Source of the DNA: Promethearchaeota archaeon
Lineage (GTDB): Archaea; Asgardarchaeota; Hermodarchaeia; Hermodarchaeales; Hermodarchaeaceae
Reading direction: 5' to 3'
Assembly: GCA_048939625.1 (NCBI GenBank)
Contig: JBHLPH010000012.1
Coordinates: 1 to 32,985 of the forward strand
DNA: 32,985 bases
Of this stretch, positions 23,334-32,480 are shown in pieces; position 1 is the stretch's first letter, and each line of letters begins with the position of its first letter. Position numbers and translations under genes: made by a program. The notes below the pieces were generated by a model that was not told the DNA's origin, made no database searches, and saw only the letters and a program-made list of their open reading frames with translations.

Positions 23334-24056
23334 TCATACGTAGTATTCATAGGGGTCATATTCCGATCCGGGTTTCGCCCGGTTGTGTCTAATTCGGATT
23401 GTGCGATATAGAAAGGCAAAGAGGAACCCACCGAGAAATCCGAAGACATGTGCACCGTGGGCGATACCGGTGCCAAAAGCTAAGAACATCTGGAATAGTT
23501 CCAAGAAGAAGTAGATAACAATGATATTCCAAGCAGCTGTTGTCCGCCCTGAATAGCCATAAATCCCCACGGGACGTCGGGGAAGCAGATATGCGTAAGC
23601 CGCCATAATGCCGAAGATTGCTCCTGAAGCCCCGATAGTGGGAATAGATGGTCCGACTGGATCTACTGCTATTCCAATGGTGAAGACGATTAGCACATGT
23701 CCTAGACCACCAATAATGCCAGCAAAAATGTAGAGGGCAATGTAGGTAAACGGGTGCATTTCTCGTTCAACTACACTTCCAAAAATGTAGAGGAAATACA
23801 TGTTAATTAATAAGTGAAAGAAATCAGCATGGAGAAACTGACTCGTCACTAGGGTCAGGAGCGCTTGCCCGGATACAATTTTAACAGGAATGAGAGCGAA
23901 GGTATACGTGATAACTGGAAACCCGATTTGAACTTCAATAATAAAAACGAGAATAAAAATAACTGTGTTCAGAAGGATCAGGGTGTAGGTCATATAGGAG
24001 CTGATTGGACGGATGTATTCTGAATAAGTCACAACAAGGCACTTCCTAATGACCAA
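23334..24056 (-). CDS. Rhomboid intramembrane serine protease
   Basis: TSQFLHADFFHLLINM, catalytic GASG and AHGAHVFG. Start uncertain (TTG 24056 or GTG 24032). Confidence 0.93.
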   Translation of the reverse strand: MVIRKCLVVTYSEYIRPISSYMTYTLILLNTVIFILVFIIEVQIGFPVITYTFALIPVKIVSGQALLTLVTSQFLHADFFHLLINMYFLYIFGSVVEREMHPFTYIALYIFAGIIGGLGHVLIVFTIGIAVDPVGPSIPTIGASGAIFGIMAAYAYLLPRRPVGIYGYSGRTTAAWNIIVIYFFLELFQMFLAFGTGIAHGAHVFGFLGGFLFAFLYRTIRIRHNRAKPGSEYDPYEYYV

Positions 24057-24165: not shown

Positions 24166-24549
24166 ATGAGTATGGCGCTTCGGGATTTTTTGTACCCTCA
24201 ATTGGAAGTTCAGCTAATCCTGGCTAGAAGATTGGATGTCGATGAAGTACAAGCAGGCCAAGGAAGTTTATCTAAAAACTATCTAGCCGTCGCTGCTAAA
24301 ATTTCGTTAGCTACTCGAGATGCGCAGCGATTAGGATTAAAGGAAGCCAGTCACGTTGAAGTTAAATCGAAAATCGGTCGGGTGATTGTTGAGGCTAGAA
24401 TAGTTGAAAATCAACCAGAGGGTTTAGTGGTCATGCAGCCCAGTCCCTGGGCTTTTGCAGTCATTAATGACATGATTCACAGCCAAGGAACAAAAGTTAC
24501 AATCAAGGCTAGCGATGAGTCTGTAACTACTATTGAATCACTTCCCTAA
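24166..24549 (+). CDS. FwdD/FmdD-like molybdopterin-dinucleotide-binding domain protein, divergent
   Basis: DAQRLGLKEASHVEVKSKIGRVIV...PEGLVVMQPSPWA matches the FwdD fold, but the TGR and PWAN motifs are altered. Confidence 0.75.
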   Translation: MSMALRDFLYPQLEVQLILARRLDVDEVQAGQGSLSKNYLAVAAKISLATRDAQRLGLKEASHVEVKSKIGRVIVEARIVENQPEGLVVMQPSPWAFAVINDMIHSQGTKVTIKASDESVTTIESLP

Positions 24550-24577
24550 ATTCTGTCTGCTGCGTCATAACCAGAAT

Positions 24578-26065
24578 CTAGGATTTCTTCTTAGGCTTTT
24601 GTTTCGTTGTAGATGGTCGATTTGTCCCAGAAATTGGTTTCTTGGTTTTTGAAGCGGTATTTTTTACTTCTGTACATAAAGGGTCGATTCGGCCACGTTC
24701 AAAGAGTAACCGGAGTCGCCAATTCTCTCGAATCACATCTTGGAGTTTCTGTATTCGTTCTTGGGCTTTCTGTCGACTGACCTTATCCTCAGACCATTGC
24801 TCTGATTTCGTTTGAATAGTCGATCTTTGTTCAGTGGGAGGTACCTTGATGACTCGCTCGTAGATTTCTTTCAGAGGAGCTTGTCGTCCGATCAGATGAT
24901 CATAAAATACTCGCGCCCTAGCTCGTTCCCAATCCCGGGCCTTTTCAATTTGAGATAGATGATAACTCTCCCTGGATACCTTCAAGACCGATTCAGGGCA
25001 GGCATTTTCACAGGCGCCACAGAAGACGCAGATATCCTTGTTGATAGCGATCTTGTCTTTATCACCAGTCGGGTAAATTGCCTTGGTGGGACAAATATTG
25101 AAGCAGTTTACACACCCAGTGGGATCGCATTTTTCGAGATTTTCGATTTCAATTTCACCTGTGAGTGGTAGAGAAACGTCAAGGGCTTCATAAGGGCACT
25201 TCTCAGCGCAGAGTGTGCAATCAACACACAATCCATCATCAATGGTCATTGAGCCTTCAACGATTGGGTCTTTGATAGTTCGCTTGGGGGCAGAGTCACA
25301 TGTGACTTTCACTGCATCAGAGGGACAGATTTTCTCACAGAGTCCACAATAATCACATTGCTTTGTATCGACCCTAATACCCACAGCTGGCAGAAAATCT
25401 GGAGGCTTTGGTTTTTCCTCTGACCAATAAATCGTGATGCATTCAGGGCAGAGTAATTCACAAAGTCCACACCAAGTACATTTGTCTTCATCAATTGCAA
25501 TGGTTCCTTTTGCGTCTGGCTTTCCCCCATCGACGCGCTGAGCCGCTTTAGGGTCTTTATAAGTTACAAGTTCGAGTTTTGACGTAACCTTGAGGTCTAC
25601 AGTTATTGCATCGCGAGGACAGATTTTTGCACATAGTAGACAAGGTGCACATTTTTCGTCATCGAGTTCATGCTTTCCTTTTAATCGAGAGTATTGTTTG
25701 TCTGCCGGAATATCATCAAACCGAGCTTCTATCGCATTGAAGAGACAAGCTGAGTCACAGAGCCCACAAAATGTACATTTATCTTCATCAATAAGAATTA
25801 GCGGTGCACCTTCTAGACGTCCTGCTGCGATTTCTTGAACTGGTCCTAACGTGATGGCATCCCAAGGACAGGGGAGACAAAGACTGCATCCCACGCAGCG
25901 AGAAAGATCATATTTGAGATTCTTGTTGAGTAAGGAAGTCTTCCAGTTGTACTGAATATTAGTGTCATCCAGTACTTCACTGGTGACTTTAGGGCGCTCA
26001 CCAACAGTGATACGGTCACGTTGAGCTTTAGTCATATCGTAGTCCCTTGGAAATAATTCTGCCAA
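24578..26065 (-). CDS. fwdF: Polyferredoxin, FwdF/FmdF-like (eight 4Fe-4S motifs)
   Basis: Eight CxxCxxCxxxC-type motifs; AITLGPVQEIAAGRLEGAPLILIDEDKCTFCGLC is FwdF-typical. Confidence 0.85.
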   Translation of the reverse strand: MAELFPRDYDMTKAQRDRITVGERPKVTSEVLDDTNIQYNWKTSLLNKNLKYDLSRCVGCSLCLPCPWDAITLGPVQEIAAGRLEGAPLILIDEDKCTFCGLCDSACLFNAIEARFDDIPADKQYSRLKGKHELDDEKCAPCLLCAKICPRDAITVDLKVTSKLELVTYKDPKAAQRVDGGKPDAKGTIAIDEDKCTWCGLCELLCPECITIYWSEEKPKPPDFLPAVGIRVDTKQCDYCGLCEKICPSDAVKVTCDSAPKRTIKDPIVEGSMTIDDGLCVDCTLCAEKCPYEALDVSLPLTGEIEIENLEKCDPTGCVNCFNICPTKAIYPTGDKDKIAINKDICVFCGACENACPESVLKVSRESYHLSQIEKARDWERARARVFYDHLIGRQAPLKEIYERVIKVPPTEQRSTIQTKSEQWSEDKVSRQKAQERIQKLQDVIRENWRLRLLFERGRIDPLCTEVKNTASKTKKPISGTNRPSTTKQKPKKKS

Positions 26066-26300
26066 GCTAGCTTTCCGAATCTTCGCCTATAACGCTTGTT
26101 GCCGTCCTAGTTACAGGCTTTAATTCGCTTTCGATATTCTCTGCGACTCAGAAAATAAGCACGTGTTACTACAAAACTGATAAAACTATATTCGGAACTA
26201 ATTCCTTTATGCGGGGGAACTGACACGATCCTCTAAGAGTATTCTGGCTAGTAATCGTGTCGCGATCGATAAAAATCGTTAGCGTTCTAGAATTTTATGC

Positions 26301-28004
26301 TTAAGGCTTCGATGACCGTGCGTTTGAGTAATCAGGAAAATGCAGCCCACACCGTGGGCAGAATTGGCGCTTTGCGAGCCAGTCAGTCATATGCTTATAA
26401 TGCGCTAACGCACCACAACCGGGGCAGAAGGCGATTGGAGTATCTGGAGAAAGCACCTCATCACAGAAAATACAGCGATGAAGAAGGGTAGAGCACAGTG
26501 AACATTGGCTGTCTGATTTCAAACATGTTGCACTACATTTCGGACATTGTGTTAATCCAGTAAGTACTGAGGTTAAATCCTCAATCATTCGAGGAGAGAG
26601 ATAAGTCTTCAGCACAGCCTGCTTTGTAGGCTGTGCCCAAGGATCTGAGATTTCTTTTCGACTTTGTCGGAGTAGCAAATAAGAACCTAACACCATAATG
26701 ATTGATAATCCTGTCCCCAAGAAGATTAGGAACATGTTGGGTGGGCCATATGTTCGCGTATCTTCTGGTAGAATTAGTTCTGGATTATCAGGAATACGAA
26801 GTGCCCAGGCTACCGAATGGTATTCTGCAAGGCTTTCACTTCGACCAGCGATTATAAAGTCCCCTTGAGAGGTCTGCAGTATCGAATATCCTTGATCGTC
26901 TTCTGTACCTCCATAGTTTTTGCTTCTGAGAAATTCACCTTCTCGTGTTAAGCGGACTAACCAAAGGTTGTCGAAGTGGTCGTTTCCTTCCCATTCGACC
27001 GTTCTTCCAGCGATGCCCAGACTGCCATCAGCAAGTTCAGTAATCGCATAAGCTGCATCAGAAGATTGCTCACCAAATAGCGTAGTCCATTGAAGGGTCC
27101 CGTTACTATGATATGAGATAGCAAATCCATCTGATACTAGATTTGAAGTCTTTTCAGTCTCGCCAACAGTAACTAAATTTCCGCTTCTGGTTTCAATAAC
27201 ATCTGAGCAGACATCTGACCATAGACTACCAAATGTCTTATTCCATAGTGCACCCCCCGTGGGTGAAGTGACAAGTAACCATGCATCCTCGTTGCCATGT
27301 CCGTAGCTCTCTGTTGAGCCCCCTAATACGAAATTACCCGACCTTGATTCTACTAATGAAGTACAAACTTCATCATCCATTCCCCCATACTCCTGACTCC
27401 AGAGCATATTTCCACTCTCGTCTGTTCGAACTAGCCATGATTGGGAGTTGGTATGATTTTCATTCATCACAGAACCTGCAAAAGCAAATCCTCCCGATTG
27501 ACATTCAACCAAGGATAGCCCCTGATCGAAATTCTGAGACCCACCAAATGTTTGATGCCAAGAAATAGTTCCGGATTCGTCTAAACGGATAAGAAGAGCG
27601 TCCCGATGATTGTCTGGGATATACCCAATTACTGCAAACCCCCCAGCTTCGCATTCGATGATTTCCCGTCCTACTTGAGCTGAAAAAGCTTCAAAGGCTT
27701 GGTGCCAAAGAAGGCGTCCATTTTCTGCAATTCTAACAATTGCTAGGGCTTGTTTCTCTCGATAGTGGATAAACCCTGTGGCAACATATCCTCCCGCCTT
27801 GCAAGAGATAATCGAGTAAAAGGCGTTATAACCAGCCCAAGAACCATGTGTCAGACTCCAAAGTTGATCTGTATTTACACGAGCATAATTTGGAGCTGTA
27901 TAATTTGCAGTATCAAGAGTTAATCCAAAGCCAATCCCTGTAATTATACTTGAAATTAGAATGCAAATGCAAAATAGTCTGCATTTCCTCAGCAAGCAGT
28001 CCAA
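26301..28004 (-). CDS. Single-pass membrane protein: signal peptide, beta-propeller ectodomain, TM helix, cytoplasmic Zn finger plus RING-like domain
   Basis: About 7 repeats of type WLVRTDESGNMLWSQEYGG; TM MFLIFLGTGLSIIMVLGSYLLL followed by RQSRK; CPKC-x10-CSLC-x6-CIFC-x12-CPGC-x4-H-x2-H-x3-W-x6-CPRC. Confidence 0.85.
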   Translation of the reverse strand: MDCLLRKCRLFCICILISSIITGIGFGLTLDTANYTAPNYARVNTDQLWSLTHGSWAGYNAFYSIISCKAGGYVATGFIHYREKQALAIVRIAENGRLLWHQAFEAFSAQVGREIIECEAGGFAVIGYIPDNHRDALLIRLDESGTISWHQTFGGSQNFDQGLSLVECQSGGFAFAGSVMNENHTNSQSWLVRTDESGNMLWSQEYGGMDDEVCTSLVESRSGNFVLGGSTESYGHGNEDAWLLVTSPTGGALWNKTFGSLWSDVCSDVIETRSGNLVTVGETEKTSNLVSDGFAISYHSNGTLQWTTLFGEQSSDAAYAITELADGSLGIAGRTVEWEGNDHFDNLWLVRLTREGEFLRSKNYGGTEDDQGYSILQTSQGDFIIAGRSESLAEYHSVAWALRIPDNPELILPEDTRTYGPPNMFLIFLGTGLSIIMVLGSYLLLRQSRKEISDPWAQPTKQAVLKTYLSPRMIEDLTSVLTGLTQCPKCSATCLKSDSQCSLCSTLLHRCIFCDEVLSPDTPIAFCPGCGALAHYKHMTDWLAKRQFCPRCGLHFPDYSNARSSKP

Positions 28005-28072
28005 CCTTCTTGGTCCTCTGGACTTATCAAACAGGAACCTGGCTTAAAACTCTGATGAAAGCAACAAATGAG

Positions 28073-30523
28073 TTAGCGACGTTTTGTCGTAACAGTCAGT
28101 TCAGAACCAAGGGGACCCATATCAATGACATTTTCAACAAAGTCTCGTACTATCTCAGCAAGTCGAGCTCCCTCTGAGGCAGAGATACTTTCGAAAATGA
28201 TGCGATCTGGATTTAGACCCATCTCTTCTAATAACGGTAGCATCTTTTCCACACGTTCTTTTGCCTTGCCCATTCCAGTCCGATAATGGCAATCAGTTTC
28301 ATGACATCCAATAATCGCAACACCATCAGCACCCTGGCTAAAGGCTTCAAGGATGAGTAAGGGATCCAGTCGACTCGTACAAGGAACTCGAATTGGAATC
28401 ATCTGTGGAGGATACCGTAATCGATTCACTCCTGCATAATCTGCCGCTGCATAAGCACACCAATTACAAAGAAACCCAATTATGACAGGGGAAAGTGGAT
28501 TCTCTTGGCAAGCGGTATCAACAGCTGAAAGGAGTTGTTGCCGAGTGAATCCAGGTAAATCAAGTGCTGCTGTTGGACAGGATGCCACACAGGCACCACA
28601 ACCCGTGCAGGCAAGTTCATCGATTTGGGGGTACTTTGACCCTTCAAACGAGATTGCGTTAGCATCACAGGTTTTTTCACATAATCGACAACTCTCACAC
28701 AATGCTTCATTTACAACAGGAGCATAGACCTCTAAATCGATTTTACGTCGATGTAACAGAGAAGATACTTGAGCTGCTGCTAAACCTGCATGAGCAACTG
28801 TGTCTGCGATATCCTTGGGACCTTGAGAAGTACCAGCAAGAAAAATACCAGCCGAGTAGGTTCCTGTTGGATCCAGTTTTGGATGTTTCTCCAAGAAGAA
28901 GTTATTCTCATCTAAGGGAATATTGAGTTTCAATGCAAGCTCGAGATTCGATGGAGCAGGATCTACGCCAACACTCAACACTACAAGATCTGCTGGAAAC
29001 TCAATGGGTTCACAAAGTTCAGTATCTTCTGCGCGGATAAGCAGTTTCTTTGTCTTAGGATCTTCTTCGATTTCAGCAACGCGACCTCGGATAAACGTGA
29101 TACCATGCTCTCTGCTAGCCCGTTCGTATAATTCTTCGAAACCTTTACCGAAGGTTCGCATGTCTGTATAGAAGATGTATACATCAGTTTCCGGTTGGGC
29201 TATACGTAGTTGAACGGCTTCCTTGATAGCGTATGTACAACAGATGCGACTACAATAGGGTCGATTTATCCTAATATCGCGGCTGCCTACACATTGGACA
29301 AACGCAACCCGTTTCGGAGCGTCTCCTGATGAGGGCTGTATAACCAAACCATGCGATGGACCCGAAGGATCCAGTAGCCGTTCCAGCTCTGGCGCAGTAA
29401 TAACATCAGTATATCGTTCGTACCCGTATTCTGTAAGATTTTGTGGATTAAAAGGTACAAAGCCGGTGGCAACCACTATCGCTCCAACTTTGAAGGTATG
29501 GTCTTGTTCGGTTTCTTCAAAGCGGATTGATTCTTTCTCACATACACCAACACAGGATTGGCAACCAATACAAGCATCCATATCAATGTATGGAGCAAGG
29601 GGCACTGAGCTCGGATAAGGGCGAATAATTGCGTGCTGAGATCCCAGCCCATAATTATATTCGTTGGGTTCTTCTATAGGACAAATCTCAAGGCATTTGT
29701 TACATCCGTTACAAGTCTCAAGGTCGACGTAGCGGGGTTCCTGATGAATCTTCACCTGATAGGCACCGGGTGTTCCCTGGACCTCGGTGACCTCACTTAG
29801 GGTTAGAATCTTGATTTTTGGATGAGTGTTTACCTGTGTCATCAACGGACCTAGGATACATAAACTACAATCGAGACTCGGGAAGAGTTTATCCCATTTT
29901 GCCATATGACCCCCAAGAAATCCACTTCTTTCTACAAGAATGACTTCGTATCCAGAATTCGCAAGTTGTAGTGAAGCTGTGATCCCAGCAGGTCCTCCGC
30001 CAATAACAAGAACTCGTCTTGTTATCGGTACACTTATTGAATTAATGCTGAGTCCAGCTTGTGCCATTTTTAAGGCTGCATCAATCATGAGTCGAGCTTT
30101 TGCGGTTGCTGCTTCGGGGTTATCCCAATGGACCCAACTGCATTGTTCACGTATATTCGCAATGGCGAGATGCCCTCGATTCAGTCCTGCTTCTTCAACA
30201 GTTTGACTCATTAATTCTCCGTGTAGTCGTGGTGAACAGGCAGCAACCACAACATTGGCAACCTTTTCCTTTCGGATGGTTTCCCGAATCAGATTTAGCC
30301 CTTGTTCAACACAAAAATGTGCATCATCAACTACGATAAGGTGTGATTGTTTCTTATAATGCTGAACGAGGTCTTCAACATTCACTATACTGGCAATATT
30401 TGACCCACACTGACAAAGAAATAATGCTGTTTTTGGTAACGCTTTTGATTTGGTTTTGCGGCGAGTGGACTTAGACTGTGGTGTCTTGAGCTTGGTTTTT
30501 TTAGATTTAGCCACAATCGTCAC
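28073..30523 (-). CDS. hdrA: Heterodisulfide reductase subunit A fused to an MvhD (hydrogenase delta, 2Fe-2S) domain
   Basis: CQCGSNIA, ACSPRLH, NIREQCSWVH, GGGPAG, FPSLDCSLCIL, QCVGSRD, YCSRICC, GPKDIADT and ferredoxin motifs; MvhD motifs FLCNWCAY, VPCTSR and GCHETDCHY. Confidence 0.95.
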   Translation of the reverse strand: MTIVAKSKKTKLKTPQSKSTRRKTKSKALPKTALFLCQCGSNIASIVNVEDLVQHYKKQSHLIVVDDAHFCVEQGLNLIRETIRKEKVANVVVAACSPRLHGELMSQTVEEAGLNRGHLAIANIREQCSWVHWDNPEAATAKARLMIDAALKMAQAGLSINSISVPITRRVLVIGGGPAGITASLQLANSGYEVILVERSGFLGGHMAKWDKLFPSLDCSLCILGPLMTQVNTHPKIKILTLSEVTEVQGTPGAYQVKIHQEPRYVDLETCNGCNKCLEICPIEEPNEYNYGLGSQHAIIRPYPSSVPLAPYIDMDACIGCQSCVGVCEKESIRFEETEQDHTFKVGAIVVATGFVPFNPQNLTEYGYERYTDVITAPELERLLDPSGPSHGLVIQPSSGDAPKRVAFVQCVGSRDIRINRPYCSRICCTYAIKEAVQLRIAQPETDVYIFYTDMRTFGKGFEELYERASREHGITFIRGRVAEIEEDPKTKKLLIRAEDTELCEPIEFPADLVVLSVGVDPAPSNLELALKLNIPLDENNFFLEKHPKLDPTGTYSAGIFLAGTSQGPKDIADTVAHAGLAAAQVSSLLHRRKIDLEVYAPVVNEALCESCRLCEKTCDANAISFEGSKYPQIDELACTGCGACVASCPTAALDLPGFTRQQLLSAVDTACQENPLSPVIIGFLCNWCAYAAADYAGVNRLRYPPQMIPIRVPCTSRLDPLLILEAFSQGADGVAIIGCHETDCHYRTGMGKAKERVEKMLPLLEEMGLNPDRIIFESISASEGARLAEIVRDFVENVIDMGPLGSELTVTTKRR

Positions 30524-30692
30524 CGAGTCTCTTTGACATGAGTTCAGGTACCAATATGAGTTTTAACACTTGTTACGTTACTATCTGATGATTTAATTGT
30601 TAAGGCGAATGGCAAATTAGACCTCCTGGTTGTTACCCAAGAGATAAAGGGAGAAATTAGACCAGAATACTGGTAGGCTGTGTCGTGAACTC

Positions 30693-31160
30693 ATGGTAGA
30701 TAAAAAAGTCAATCCCATGCAATTGTATAAACTCCTGCCCCAAACCAATTGCAAGAAGTGTGGTATGACCTGCATGGCTTTTGCAACGAAGCTAGCCCTC
30801 CGCGAAGTTGAACTGAAAGAATGCACACCGCTCTTTGAAGAAGAGCAGTATAAAGAGAAACTTGCCACACTCTCTGATCTCATTAGCCCTCTCTTAGAAA
30901 CTGAAGAAACAGGTTTGAAACTAGATGAGACCATATGTACAGGATGTGGCAATTGCGTTGTTGTCTGTCCAGTCGATGCATCCACAGAACCGGATACAGC
31001 TTCCGGGAAAGCTGCACGTTCAACTGACACAGTCTTCAGAGTTGAAGATGGCATCGCTAAGATTATCAACCTTGAGAAATGTCGTCGATTTCCACCCGAA
31101 CGCATGAATTGTCGTGTCTGTGAACAAGGTTGTTATGTGAAGGCTATCGAAATCTGGTAA
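30693..31160 (+). CDS. FwdG-like ferredoxin with an N-terminal Fe-S domain of the CdhE/RnfB type
   Basis: LPQTNCKKCGMTCMAFA...ECTPL; CTGCGNCVVVCPV; CRVCEQGCYVKAI; directly upstream of the fwdB-like gene. Confidence 0.8.
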   Translation: MVDKKVNPMQLYKLLPQTNCKKCGMTCMAFATKLALREVELKECTPLFEEEQYKEKLATLSDLISPLLETEETGLKLDETICTGCGNCVVVCPVDASTEPDTASGKAARSTDTVFRVEDGIAKIINLEKCRRFPPERMNCRVCEQGCYVKAIEIW

Positions 31161-31196
31161 CTATATACGTATATCAGCAGCTGAAGGGAACGAAAC

Positions 31197-32480
31197 GTGC
31201 AAGATACTGTATGTTGTGGCTGTTCAGTCGTCTGTGATGACGTGGCAGTATCAGTTAAAAAAGCCAGCTTGCAATCCTTAGGCCTCTGCAGACTCGGTCA
31301 TGAGTATTGTAGCTCGATATTCAGTAAAGCACGACTTACATATCCTTTGATGAAAACGGGTGATGGAAAACCGAAATCAACAACCATGAAGAAAGCCTTG
31401 GAGAAAGCTACAGAGCTCCTTCATGAAAGCAAAAGACCATTGTTAATCGGGTGGTCAAATAGTACAACCGAAGCGATCACCTGTGGATTGGACATCGCTC
31501 AACATAAGAGAGGAGTATTCGATAGCACCGCGAGCTTCGAATACGGGGCCCTTCTAGAATTTGGCTTGCATGGGGGTGAATCAGAAAAAACCTCATTGGA
31601 TACTGTACGGGATTTTGCCGACCACATAGTCTATTGGGGAGTCAACCCAGCAGAAAGCCACCATCGTCATGCCAGTCGATACACAGTGTTTCCCAAAGGC
31701 AAGAATATCCCAGAAGGTCGTGAAAGTCGTGTGGTATCAGTGATTGATATTCGAGATACAGAATCCATGCGATTAGCAAACCATCAACTGATTCTTTCCC
31801 CTTCCACGGGCGACGAGGAATTTCTGAATTTACTTATCGCTGAACTCGATGGAACTCGCGAACACCTACCTGATAAAATTGGAGGAGTGCCTGCTATTGA
31901 GTTTCTCAGTTTTAGTAAACAACTTCGAGAAGCAAGTGATGTAGCCTTATTTTATGGCAATGGTTTACTGCATTCACCGAACACTCGACGCATTCTACCG
32001 CTACTTGCCAAGGTGAATGGCCTTCTCAATCGAAACCAGCACCGATGCTGGACATTACCGATGATAGCATACTGCAATACGATTGGAGCGGTGAAAGCTA
32101 GTCTAAAAGTGGCGAAGATACCATTTGCCATTGATTTTCACTCAAAATCAGGAAAATCACTGCCATCGATTTTCTCTGAAATCCGGGACACTAAATTTGA
32201 TTGTGTGGTAATTGTGGGTTGGGATGCATTGAGCCTTTTACCAGGACCTATTTCCAAAGCCCTCACGAATCTTCCTATAATAGCTTTGTCGACTCATCCG
32301 ACTTTAACAACACAAAAAGCAAGCGTTGTTTTTCCAACAGCCCTAACAGGTGCAGAAGCAGCAGGCACTGTTCATCGCATGGACGGAACAACAATATCTC
32401 TTCAACCTTTCAAGGTACCACCTAAAGGTGTTCTCACAGAAGAAGCACTTTTAACGCAACTTCTTGAAAACCTCACCTAG
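31197..32480 (+). CDS. FwdB/FmdB-like subunit lacking W/Mo catalytic residues (FhcB-like)
   Basis: N-terminal CCGCSVVCDD...CRLG, GWSNSTTEA, YWGVNPAESHHRHASRY and GTVHRMDG identify the family. DSTASFEYG replaces DNTASVCHG, and PMIAYCN replaces PMRGHYN. Confidence 0.85.
   Translation: MQDTVCCGCSVVCDDVAVSVKKASLQSLGLCRLGHEYCSSIFSKARLTYPLMKTGDGKPKSTTMKKALEKATELLHESKRPLLIGWSNSTTEAITCGLDIAQHKRGVFDSTASFEYGALLEFGLHGGESEKTSLDTVRDFADHIVYWGVNPAESHHRHASRYTVFPKGKNIPEGRESRVVSVIDIRDTESMRLANHQLILSPSTGDEEFLNLLIAELDGTREHLPDKIGGVPAIEFLSFSKQLREASDVALFYGNGLLHSPNTRRILPLLAKVNGLLNRNQHRCWTLPMIAYCNTIGAVKASLKVAKIPFAIDFHSKSGKSLPSIFSEIRDTKFDCVVIVGWDALSLLPGPISKALTNLPIIALSTHPTLTTQKASVVFPTALTGAEAAGTVHRMDGTTISLQPFKVPPKGVLTEEALLTQLLENLT

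Follow-up and report, generated by a model that had tools for sequence, protein, structure and literature searches.

A predicted receptor-like membrane RING protein of a Hermod-type Asgard archaeon and the ribbon-RING family to which it belongs

Introduction

Most knowledge of ubiquitin systems in archaea centres on one small RING protein encoded in an operon. Such operon RINGs, named srfp, have been described in Caldiarchaeum subterraneum, where the protein acts as a ubiquitin ligase (E3) in vitro (PMC5654768), and in the Helarchaeia, where a cascade of ubiquitin-activating enzyme (E1), ubiquitin-conjugating enzyme (E2) and RING is active in vitro (bioRxiv 10.1101/2023.07.25.550441). The srfp proteins are soluble, about 80 amino acids (aa) long and encoded inside the ubiquitin operon. 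Here we describe a gene of a Promethearchaeota archaeon (Hermodarchaeaceae) that lies on a stretch of 32,985 nucleotides (nt) (GenBank assembly GCA_048939625.1, contig JBHLPH010000012.1, positions 1 to 32,985; hereafter the window). Its predicted product has the same RING variant as srfp, but is 567 aa long, has in addition a zinc ribbon, a transmembrane (TM) helix and a propeller, and is encoded on a different contig from the ubiquitin genes. The genome contains the partner set of srfp, namely E1, E2 and ubiquitin, together with an srfp RING of its own (P0122).

Eukaryotic proteins offer further points of comparison. In the C-terminal domains (CTDs) of the GATOR2/SEACAT subunits WDR59, WDR24 and MIOS or Sea4 (PDB 7UHY, 9LVJ, 8ADL), a zinc ribbon runs straight into a RING, as it does in the tail of the archaeal protein, and the spacing is nearly identical, with six residues between the two modules and C-x2-C-x4-H-x2-H-x3-W in the RING. 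The zinc CTDs of IFT144/WDR19 and IFT122 in the intraflagellar transport complex IFT-A (PDB 8FGW, 8BBF, 8F5O) align with the tail over the whole tandem (profile positions 4-85). Ligases of the PA-TM-RING type (RNF13/RNF128), and likewise RNF43/ZNRF3, resemble the archaeal protein in their layout: a binding domain on the luminal or extracellular side is joined through one TM helix to a cytosolic finger of the RING-H2 type.

We suggest that the archaeal protein is a receptor-like RING E3, anchored in the membrane and working with the E2 and ubiquitin of its own genome, a predicted activity to which we assign a probability of roughly 0.6. The observations in its support are the architecture, the fold class of the RING, the conservation of the E2-contact residues, a complete set of ubiquitin genes, the paralogy with the operon RING and the co-occurrence with E2.

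Architecture of the protein

The gene is the sole long open reading frame (ORF) of its region (Table 1). GC content is 0.43-0.46 around the gene and the base composition of the window is even, so that there is no sign of a foreign origin. The full-length AlphaFold2 model has a mean predicted local distance difference test (pLDDT) score of 80.8, and consists of an N-terminal helix, seven four-stranded blades, a disordered stalk, the TM helix and a zinc module (residues 484-555). The linker between TM helix and zinc module has low to medium pLDDT and contains a short helix at residues 462-468. The topology is based on hydrophobicity, the positive-inside rule and the model; because a basic stretch, RQSRK, directly follows the TM helix, the tail is expected to be in the cytoplasm. 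The product of this Hermod-type Asgard gene is most likely a receptor-like membrane protein of type I, with the propeller predicted outside and the ribbon and RING inside the cell.

A preliminary description of the locus, made from the sequence alone, had proposed a signal peptide, a propeller, one TM helix, and a zinc finger followed by a RING, and had compared this arrangement to the ectodomain-TM-RING ligases RNF43 and ZNRF3. The model and the orthologue alignment bear out both points, with the qualifications that the N-terminal helix may be a signal peptide or a signal anchor, and that the topology comes from the positive-inside rule. The protein differs from the PA-TM-RING group in having a seven-bladed propeller rather than a PA domain (a Pfam scan of the protein gave no PA-domain match), in the extra ribbon, and in the C4H2C2 order of its RING ligands. 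We regard the likeness as one of a probable working layout, and not as evidence for common descent of the full architecture.

The zinc motif and its conservation

The tail contains the motif C487-x2-C490-x10-C501-x2-C504-x6-C511-x2-C514-x12-C527-x2-C530-x4-H535-x2-H538-x3-W542-x6-C549-P550-x-C552, which extends on the minus strand from C487 at nt 26546 to the end of C552 at nt 26349. All 16 spacing elements given in the preliminary description agree with it residue for residue, as does the interval of nt 26349-26546.

A database search found full-length orthologues with 28-99% identity, the source names being Promethearchaeota or Hermodarchaeia (Asgard archaea). In 14 of these orthologues (28-76% identity) all motif cysteines, H535, W542 and P550 are invariant, and they are likewise invariant across 92 members of a wider family defined by the ribbon-RING tandem, which we term the cassette. 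The two most distant of the 14 orthologues have Glu instead of H538; in the family this position is His in 82 of the 92 members and Glu in the other 10. Position 513, just before the second Cys of the RING, is always V, I, F, L or M, while W542 and P550 are each found in 92/92. Such a pattern is not a product of chance. The RING of the protein retains the E2-contact positions F513, W542 and P550, and the W...CPxC signature of E2 binding, which had been pointed out previously, is borne out by the conservation of these columns in the family.

Fold of the tail

When the tail is searched as a single sequence, matches are marginal (RNF24, E 8e-4; WDR59, E 0.016). A profile of 14 orthologous tails (A2) aligns with WDR59 (1.8e-5), WDR24 (1.5e-4) and MIOS (2.7e-4), in each case over ribbon and RING, and with the RING-H2 domains of RNF24, Arkadia and EL5 over the RING half only. 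The profile of the 92-member family (A3) finds RNF24 (1.8e-8), EL5 (9e-8) and Arkadia (2e-7) through the RING half only, and also RNF126 (2.3e-7) and the ZNRF3 RING (1e-4). Over the whole tandem it aligns with WDR19/IFT144 (3e-7), a Leishmania IFT-A subunit (5.5e-7), MIOS (2e-6), IFT122 (8e-6), WDR59 (1.2e-5) and WDR24 (1.4e-5).

Structure searches were made with an AlphaFold2 model of the tail built on A3 (pLDDT 78), by Foldseek and by VIA-align against 48,161 representative chains. Foldseek places the GATOR2 chains WDR59, WDR24 and MIOS first (E 9e-5 to 4.5e-4; TMq 0.57), with WDR59 at rank 1-3 and a root-mean-square deviation (rmsd) of 3.0-3.5 Å over 70-74 columns; IFT-A and Sea4 come next, and then isolated RINGs. 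VIA-align also has WDR59 first, with Z 7.4 and an rmsd of 4.7 Å over 77 residues (model residues 3-84), a Z below 8 obtained with a model of pLDDT 78 as the query. Its ranks 2-50 are all RING or U-box domains (Z 4-6.5), and include RINGs solved together with an E2 (RNF38-UbcH5B, RNF12-Ube2e2, RNF13-E2~Ub and ZNRF1-Ubc13, Z 5.1-5.5; the RNF13 RING has Z 5.2). The RING half superposes closely on RNF165, with an rmsd of 1.1-1.6 Å over 47-50 columns by Foldseek and of 1.8 Å over 50 residues by VIA-align. Taken as modelled, the tail consists of a zinc ribbon followed by a cross-brace RING.

These results bear on two earlier statements. The preliminary description had named a PHD finger or simple zinc ribbons as the folds that would speak against a RING, and the RNF165 superposition and the top VIA-align matches are those of a cross-brace RING. 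It had also likened the ligand spacing to that of WDR24; the likeness to GATOR2 holds, but the best whole-tail match is WDR59, and not WDR24, in the A2 profile, Foldseek and VIA-align searches. By sequence profile, ordinary RINGs and tandem tails score at about the same level; it is in the two structure searches that WDR59 leads. The weights of AlphaFold2 predate the GATOR2 structures of 2022, and the resemblance of the tail model to WDR59 is therefore not simply a recall of training data.

Other assignments of the fold were considered and set aside. PHD-finger chains match weakly (E 0.3; PHF7, VIA-align Z 4.7), and RINGs dominate the same searches. A plain double zinc ribbon is suggested by the Pfam family DZR, which scores 29.6 bits on the isolated tail against a cut-off of 27.3; the match covers the ribbon and the first knuckles of the RING only, and the fold searches favour a RING.

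A related proposal is that the tail is a generic zinc-finger domain for signalling or nucleic-acid binding, belonging to a membrane-tethered regulator with no relation to ubiquitin. The DZR score, above its cut-off over the first two knuckle pairs, is in keeping with this, as is the resemblance of the ribbon alone to ribosomal and RNA-polymerase ribbons. However, DZR spans the ribbon and the first half of the RING, whereas the whole domain folds as a RING; a plain ribbon leaves the invariant W and CP.C unexplained, and the distribution of the cassette tracks that of E2 (see below). We consider a generic zinc finger highly improbable.

The ubiquitin system of the genome

The genome (83 contigs, 88% complete) was searched for the components of a ubiquitin system, the lack of which the preliminary description had named as a refutation of its proposal. 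Ubiquitin, E1, E2 and a small RING were all found on one contig, C45, where ESCRT-I and ubiquitin genes are physically linked in a compact cluster (C45:1144-6352; loci L002, L003 and L006). The gene order is Vps28, UEV-Vps23, an uncharacterised gene of 180 aa, the 83-aa RING P0122, ubiquitin, E2, E1 and Yip1, and the cluster matches the Hermod-type cluster reported previously (bioRxiv 10.1101/2023.07.25.550441). The ubiquitin, P0335, already ends in Gly-Gly, so it needs no processing. The E2, P0334 (UQ_con, 118 bits), has the HPN motif and the catalytic Cys; it also has the loop residues PY and PS, which have been named as RING contacts (PMC5654768). The E1, encoded at C45:4558-5601, has a C-terminal ubiquitin-like stretch, and the Yip1 protein a zinc ribbon.

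The operon RING P0122 scores above the cut-off for zf-RING_2 (30.2 bits), and its spacing, CxxC-x12-CxxC-x4-H-x2-H-x3-W-x6-CPxC, is identical to that of the studied tail. BLASTP aligns the two with E 4e-10 and 33% identity over 42 residues, and the A2 hidden Markov model (HMM) finds P0122 at 1.9e-13. P0122 is thus a paralogue of the RING studied here.

Distribution of the cassette

An exhaustive profile search of 1.84 billion representatives retrieved 1931 proteins within E <= 1e-3, of which 238 reach E <= 1e-10, with lengths of 74-1321 aa. The cassette is usually C-terminal, often behind one or more hydrophobic helices, and many members have two or more cassettes per chain. Five such genes were found by the tail HMM in the genome itself, namely the studied gene, P0122, and ORFs on contigs C58 (two cassettes), C57 and C81. 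The studied gene is thus no isolated case but belongs to a large Asgard family.

The phyletic distribution was determined for 201 Asgard genomes of 27 families, with E <= 1e-8 for the cassette profile and PF00179 for E2. The cassette is present in 143/201 genomes, in 1-26 copies per genome, and E2 in 142/201. Across all 27 families the presence and absence of the two are identical, the single discordant genome being 77% complete. Six families (f5, f6, f11, f16, f22 and f26) have neither E2 nor cassette in any sampled genome, which suggests that the whole system was lost there or was never present; in one of these families the count is 0/43, and the genomes listed are mostly >90% complete. In a seventh family, the cassette and E2 both occur in the same single genome. 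What the phyletic match shows is a dependence on the ubiquitin system for this type of RING overall, and not for the studied protein in particular.

The partners to which the cassette is fused include HEAT, LRR and winged-helix/PCI arrays, PLD, and extracellular propellers with TSP3 repeats and a TM helix. Such diversity, with the partners as candidate target-binding domains, follows the modular pattern expected of substrate-specific ligases. The gene and its family suggest that RING ligases had already diversified in Asgard archaea through the joining of a single cassette to a variety of recognition domains, receptor-like surface proteins among them, which is the principle on which the eukaryotic E3 repertoire is built.

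Several individual members of the family may be noted. P0215 (547 aa) has a HEAT alpha-solenoid (HEAT_2, 149 bits) followed by the cassette, without a TM helix, and this combination is nearer to the tail end of the protocoatomer layout than is the studied protein. A conserved soluble family of about 690 aa (P0159, P0184, P0198, P0203, P0270) also ends in the cassette; its N-terminal part weakly matches winged-helix, PCI and TrmB domains, many frames of 689-699 aa occur in f4 genomes, and it is widespread in one Asgard family. P0207 (1321 aa), from another Asgard lineage, has PQQ/FG-GAP propellers and TSP3 repeats outside, a TM helix at about residue 997 and the same tail, and would represent a second receptor-like design.

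Proposed function

If the protein is a ligase, its reaction could be envisaged as follows. The propeller would face outward and probably bind a ligand or glycan. The tail would hold three zinc ions, one in the C4 ribbon and two in the cross-brace RING, and could dock a ubiquitin-loaded E2 through the hydrophobic residue before the second Cys, the Trp of the RING helix and the Pro of CPxC. The acceptors of the ubiquitin might be lysines in the protein itself or in adjacent membrane proteins. Since ESCRT-I genes adjoin those of the ubiquitin system, the mark may feed into ESCRT-dependent sorting or turnover. The ectodomain may in addition control the ligase. If the membrane E3 is real, a genome in which ubiquitin genes lie beside those of ESCRT-I would allow the ubiquitin-dependent sorting of membrane proteins to be tested in a prokaryote.

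A number of points weigh against a ligase function. The first concerns the RING itself. The tail scores 19.4 bits with Pfam zf-RING_2 (PF13639), for which the cut-off is 27.3, although 88/92 family members match at E <= 0.01. Neither the order C4H2C2 nor the gap of four residues that separates ligand 4 from ligand 5 is that of a canonical RING-H2; the canonical spacing is C-x2-C-x9-39-C-x1-3-H-x2-3-H-x2-C-x4-48-C-x2-C, and that of the tail is C-x2-C-x12-C-x2-C-x4-H-x2-H-x10-C-x2-C. The C4H2C2 variant is common to WDR59 and the operon RING. In favour of a cross-brace arrangement, H535/H538 correspond in the HMM alignment to RNF24 to canonical ligands 5/6 and C549/C552 to ligands 7/8, and the second site is formed by C527/C530 where a canonical RING has C-x-H. 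After the last Cys, an Arg or Lys linchpin is found in many active RINGs; here, and in most orthologues, the residue is Gly, and across the family it is K/R in 46/92 and G in 21/92, including the studied protein. The second set of points concerns context. The gene adjoins no ubiquitin gene, being on contig C29 while the ubiquitin cluster is on C45. The match with E2 across genomes is driven in part by the operon RING, which the cassette profile also detects, and related genomes are not independent. The closest whole-tail structures, the GATOR2 CTDs, serve mainly as structural junctions (PMC12507694). Prediction of a complex between the genome's E2 (alignment A4) and the tail (A3) gave a score of 0.00 in both runs, which were made without controls, and counts neither for nor against a ligase.

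The main rival to a ligase is a role in assembly. The ribbon-RING tail could be a non-catalytic assembly module that pairs with another ribbon-RING, from the same protein or from any of the four paralogues in the genome, as occurs at GATOR2 junctions, and thereby dimerises or clusters the receptor for signalling or scaffolding without ubiquitin transfer. The best whole-tail structural matches are to the CTDs of WDR59, WDR24 and MIOS; the GATOR2 CTDs form CTD-CTD junctions, and the WDR59 zinc finger has a structural role (PMC12507694). The family members with two or more cassettes per chain, and the Gly at the linchpin position in the studied orthologue group, would also accord with such a role. 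However, the E2-contact residues are invariant throughout the family, and the cassette was found in 0/58 of the sampled Asgard genomes without E2, which is not expected of a module that works independently of E2. In addition, RING dimerisation and E3 activity often coexist, so that assembly does not exclude a ligase. We consider a purely structural tail unlikely, and favour the membrane-anchored E3.

Possible descent of eukaryotic ribbon-RING tails

The likeness to GATOR2 is real for the tandem and for the ligand pattern of the RING. In the HMM alignment to WDR59 901-967, all four Cys pairs and HxxH...W...CP have their counterparts, and WDR24 and MIOS align over profile positions 4-76. The ribbon alone is generic: a ribbon-only profile (A5) retrieves the ribbons of Rpo12, eL40, eS27 and bL32 first, with MIOS at E 0.0044 and WDR59 and WDR24 outside the top 60. 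It follows that the resemblance resides in the RING variant and the tandem arrangement, and that common descent with the GATOR2 tails is no more than a possibility. In the IFT-A alignment, the RING half of WDR19 is without ligand 2 and both His and looks degenerate, and the context of these CTDs is cytosolic and coat-like.

In GATOR2, each tail is preceded by a WD40 propeller, which is cytosolic, and an alpha-solenoid, and the tails build a cage. The propeller of the studied protein, by contrast, is predicted to be extracellular and of another type, with the membrane intervening before the tail and no solenoid after the propeller, and for these reasons the protein, as modelled, is not a member of the protocoatomer family.

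The cassette is present in most of the Asgard lineages that have E2, and there propellers, HEAT solenoids and membrane anchors are already among its fusion partners. We tentatively raise the possibility, which we hold to be less probable than its negation, that the Asgard ribbon and C4H2C2 RING cassette was the prokaryotic source of the ribbon-RING tails of GATOR2/SEACAT and IFT-A, and, jointly with this, that what are now structural tails started out as functional ubiquitin-ligase modules of proteins associated with membranes. The tandem likeness would then provide a concrete candidate origin for those zinc domains. A literature search covering part of the journals found no paper that links Asgard RINGs to GATOR2 or treats receptor-like RING proteins of Asgard archaea.

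Among prokaryotic families, Prok-RING_1 (PF14446) is matched by 81/92 cassette members at E <= 0.01 (best 5.9e-9); the studied protein itself reaches 16.9 bits, below the cut-off of 29.1, in a match confined to the first half of the RING. TM-linked versions and neighbours from the ubiquitin system have been described for this family.

The ectodomain

Foldseek places CylK (7roo) first for the ectodomain, with E 1.2e-21 and an rmsd of 3.0 Å over 389 columns, followed by the seven-bladed lectins PHL and PLL; phmmer against CylK gives 1.2e-11. Pfam and NCBIfam scans returned no family above threshold for this region, the NCBIfam SBBP lipoprotein match (5e-5) being below its cut-off. CylK (PDB 7ROO/7RON) and the SBBP-repeat surface propellers resemble the ectodomain in fold and repeat motif. 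CylK differs in that it is a soluble alkylating enzyme of cyanobacterial origin and has an additional N-terminal domain, and because it shares only 19% identity with the ectodomain, no catalytic function is deduced from the match.

Immediately after the orthologue, several sister genomes have one or two propeller paralogues, each about 460 aa long, that match residues ~44-453 and are without the ribbon-RING tail (G005:C102:1939-3369, G013:C6:15612-16817, G008:C25:18681-19841, G002:C63:13127-14284, G010:C89:10331-11383; L009 7625-10500). Their presence suggests either tandem duplication with loss or a paired set of receptors.

Gene neighbourhood and other features

Table 1. Coordinates of the gene, its domains, its neighbours and further cassette genes of the genome
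Feature	Position (nt)	Strand	Basis or remark
Whole gene, predicted propeller-TM-ribbon-RING protein (P0001)	26301..28004	-	TTG start; orthologues 28-99% identity
Residues 1-27, basic n-region and hydrophobic helix, putative signal peptide or signal anchor	27924..28004	-	model helix 2-27; hydrophobic N-termini aligned in orthologues
Residues 49-404, predicted seven-bladed beta-propeller ectodomain, SBBP / CylK-propeller type	26793..27860	-	28 strands; pLDDT mostly >85
Residues 424-451, predicted single TM helix, then RQSRK	26652..26735	-	model helix; conserved hydrophobic block in 14-orthologue alignment (A1)
Residues 452-483, conserved linker, predicted cytoplasmic juxtamembrane, SRKEI..PW..PSKR.I.KSYLSPR	26556..26651	-	orthologue consensus; P471 invariant
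Residues 484-510, predicted C4 zinc ribbon C487/C490/C501/C504	26475..26555	-	Cys invariant; Pfam DZR match
Residues 511-556, predicted RING, order C4-H2-C2: C511 C514 C527 C530 H535 H538 C549 C552	26337..26474	-	profile, fold and column-conservation results
HdrA-MvhD (FlpD) fusion	28073-30523	-	neighbour
Polyferredoxin, 495 aa	24578-26065	-	neighbour
Neighbourhood as a whole, with in addition a 127-aa Molydop_binding protein, a rhomboid (23334-24056) and CofC	24166-32480		neighbours
Further cassette gene, two copies	C58:77048-77773		tail HMM
Further cassette gene	C57:799-1317		tail HMM
Further cassette gene	C81:19963-20583		tail HMM

The flanking genes of the studied gene suggest another role for the tail, in which it would tether or regulate a complex of HdrA-MvhD and polyferredoxin at the membrane, with the zinc module as a docking site. 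The gene is located on the same strand between the HdrA-FlpD fusion and the polyferredoxin gene, with gaps of 68 and 235 bp, respectively, and this order recurs at orthologue loci of 46, 39 and 35% identity (L009, L010 and L012). However, full-length orthologues were found in 12-13/14 other genomes of one GTDB genus of the order, and not in the sister genus, and because they are confined to a single genus the synteny can be simply inherited. The most distant orthologue (28% identity) is located elsewhere and the order of its neighbours is not kept; several sister genomes have propeller paralogues that separate the gene from that of the ferredoxin, and the cassette family as a whole is without such an association. 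A redox partnership is accordingly the sort of explanation to which we would give very little weight.

An ORF of 64 aa at 26297-26491 on the plus strand is antisense to the RING-coding region, and is most likely a shadow frame and not a gene.

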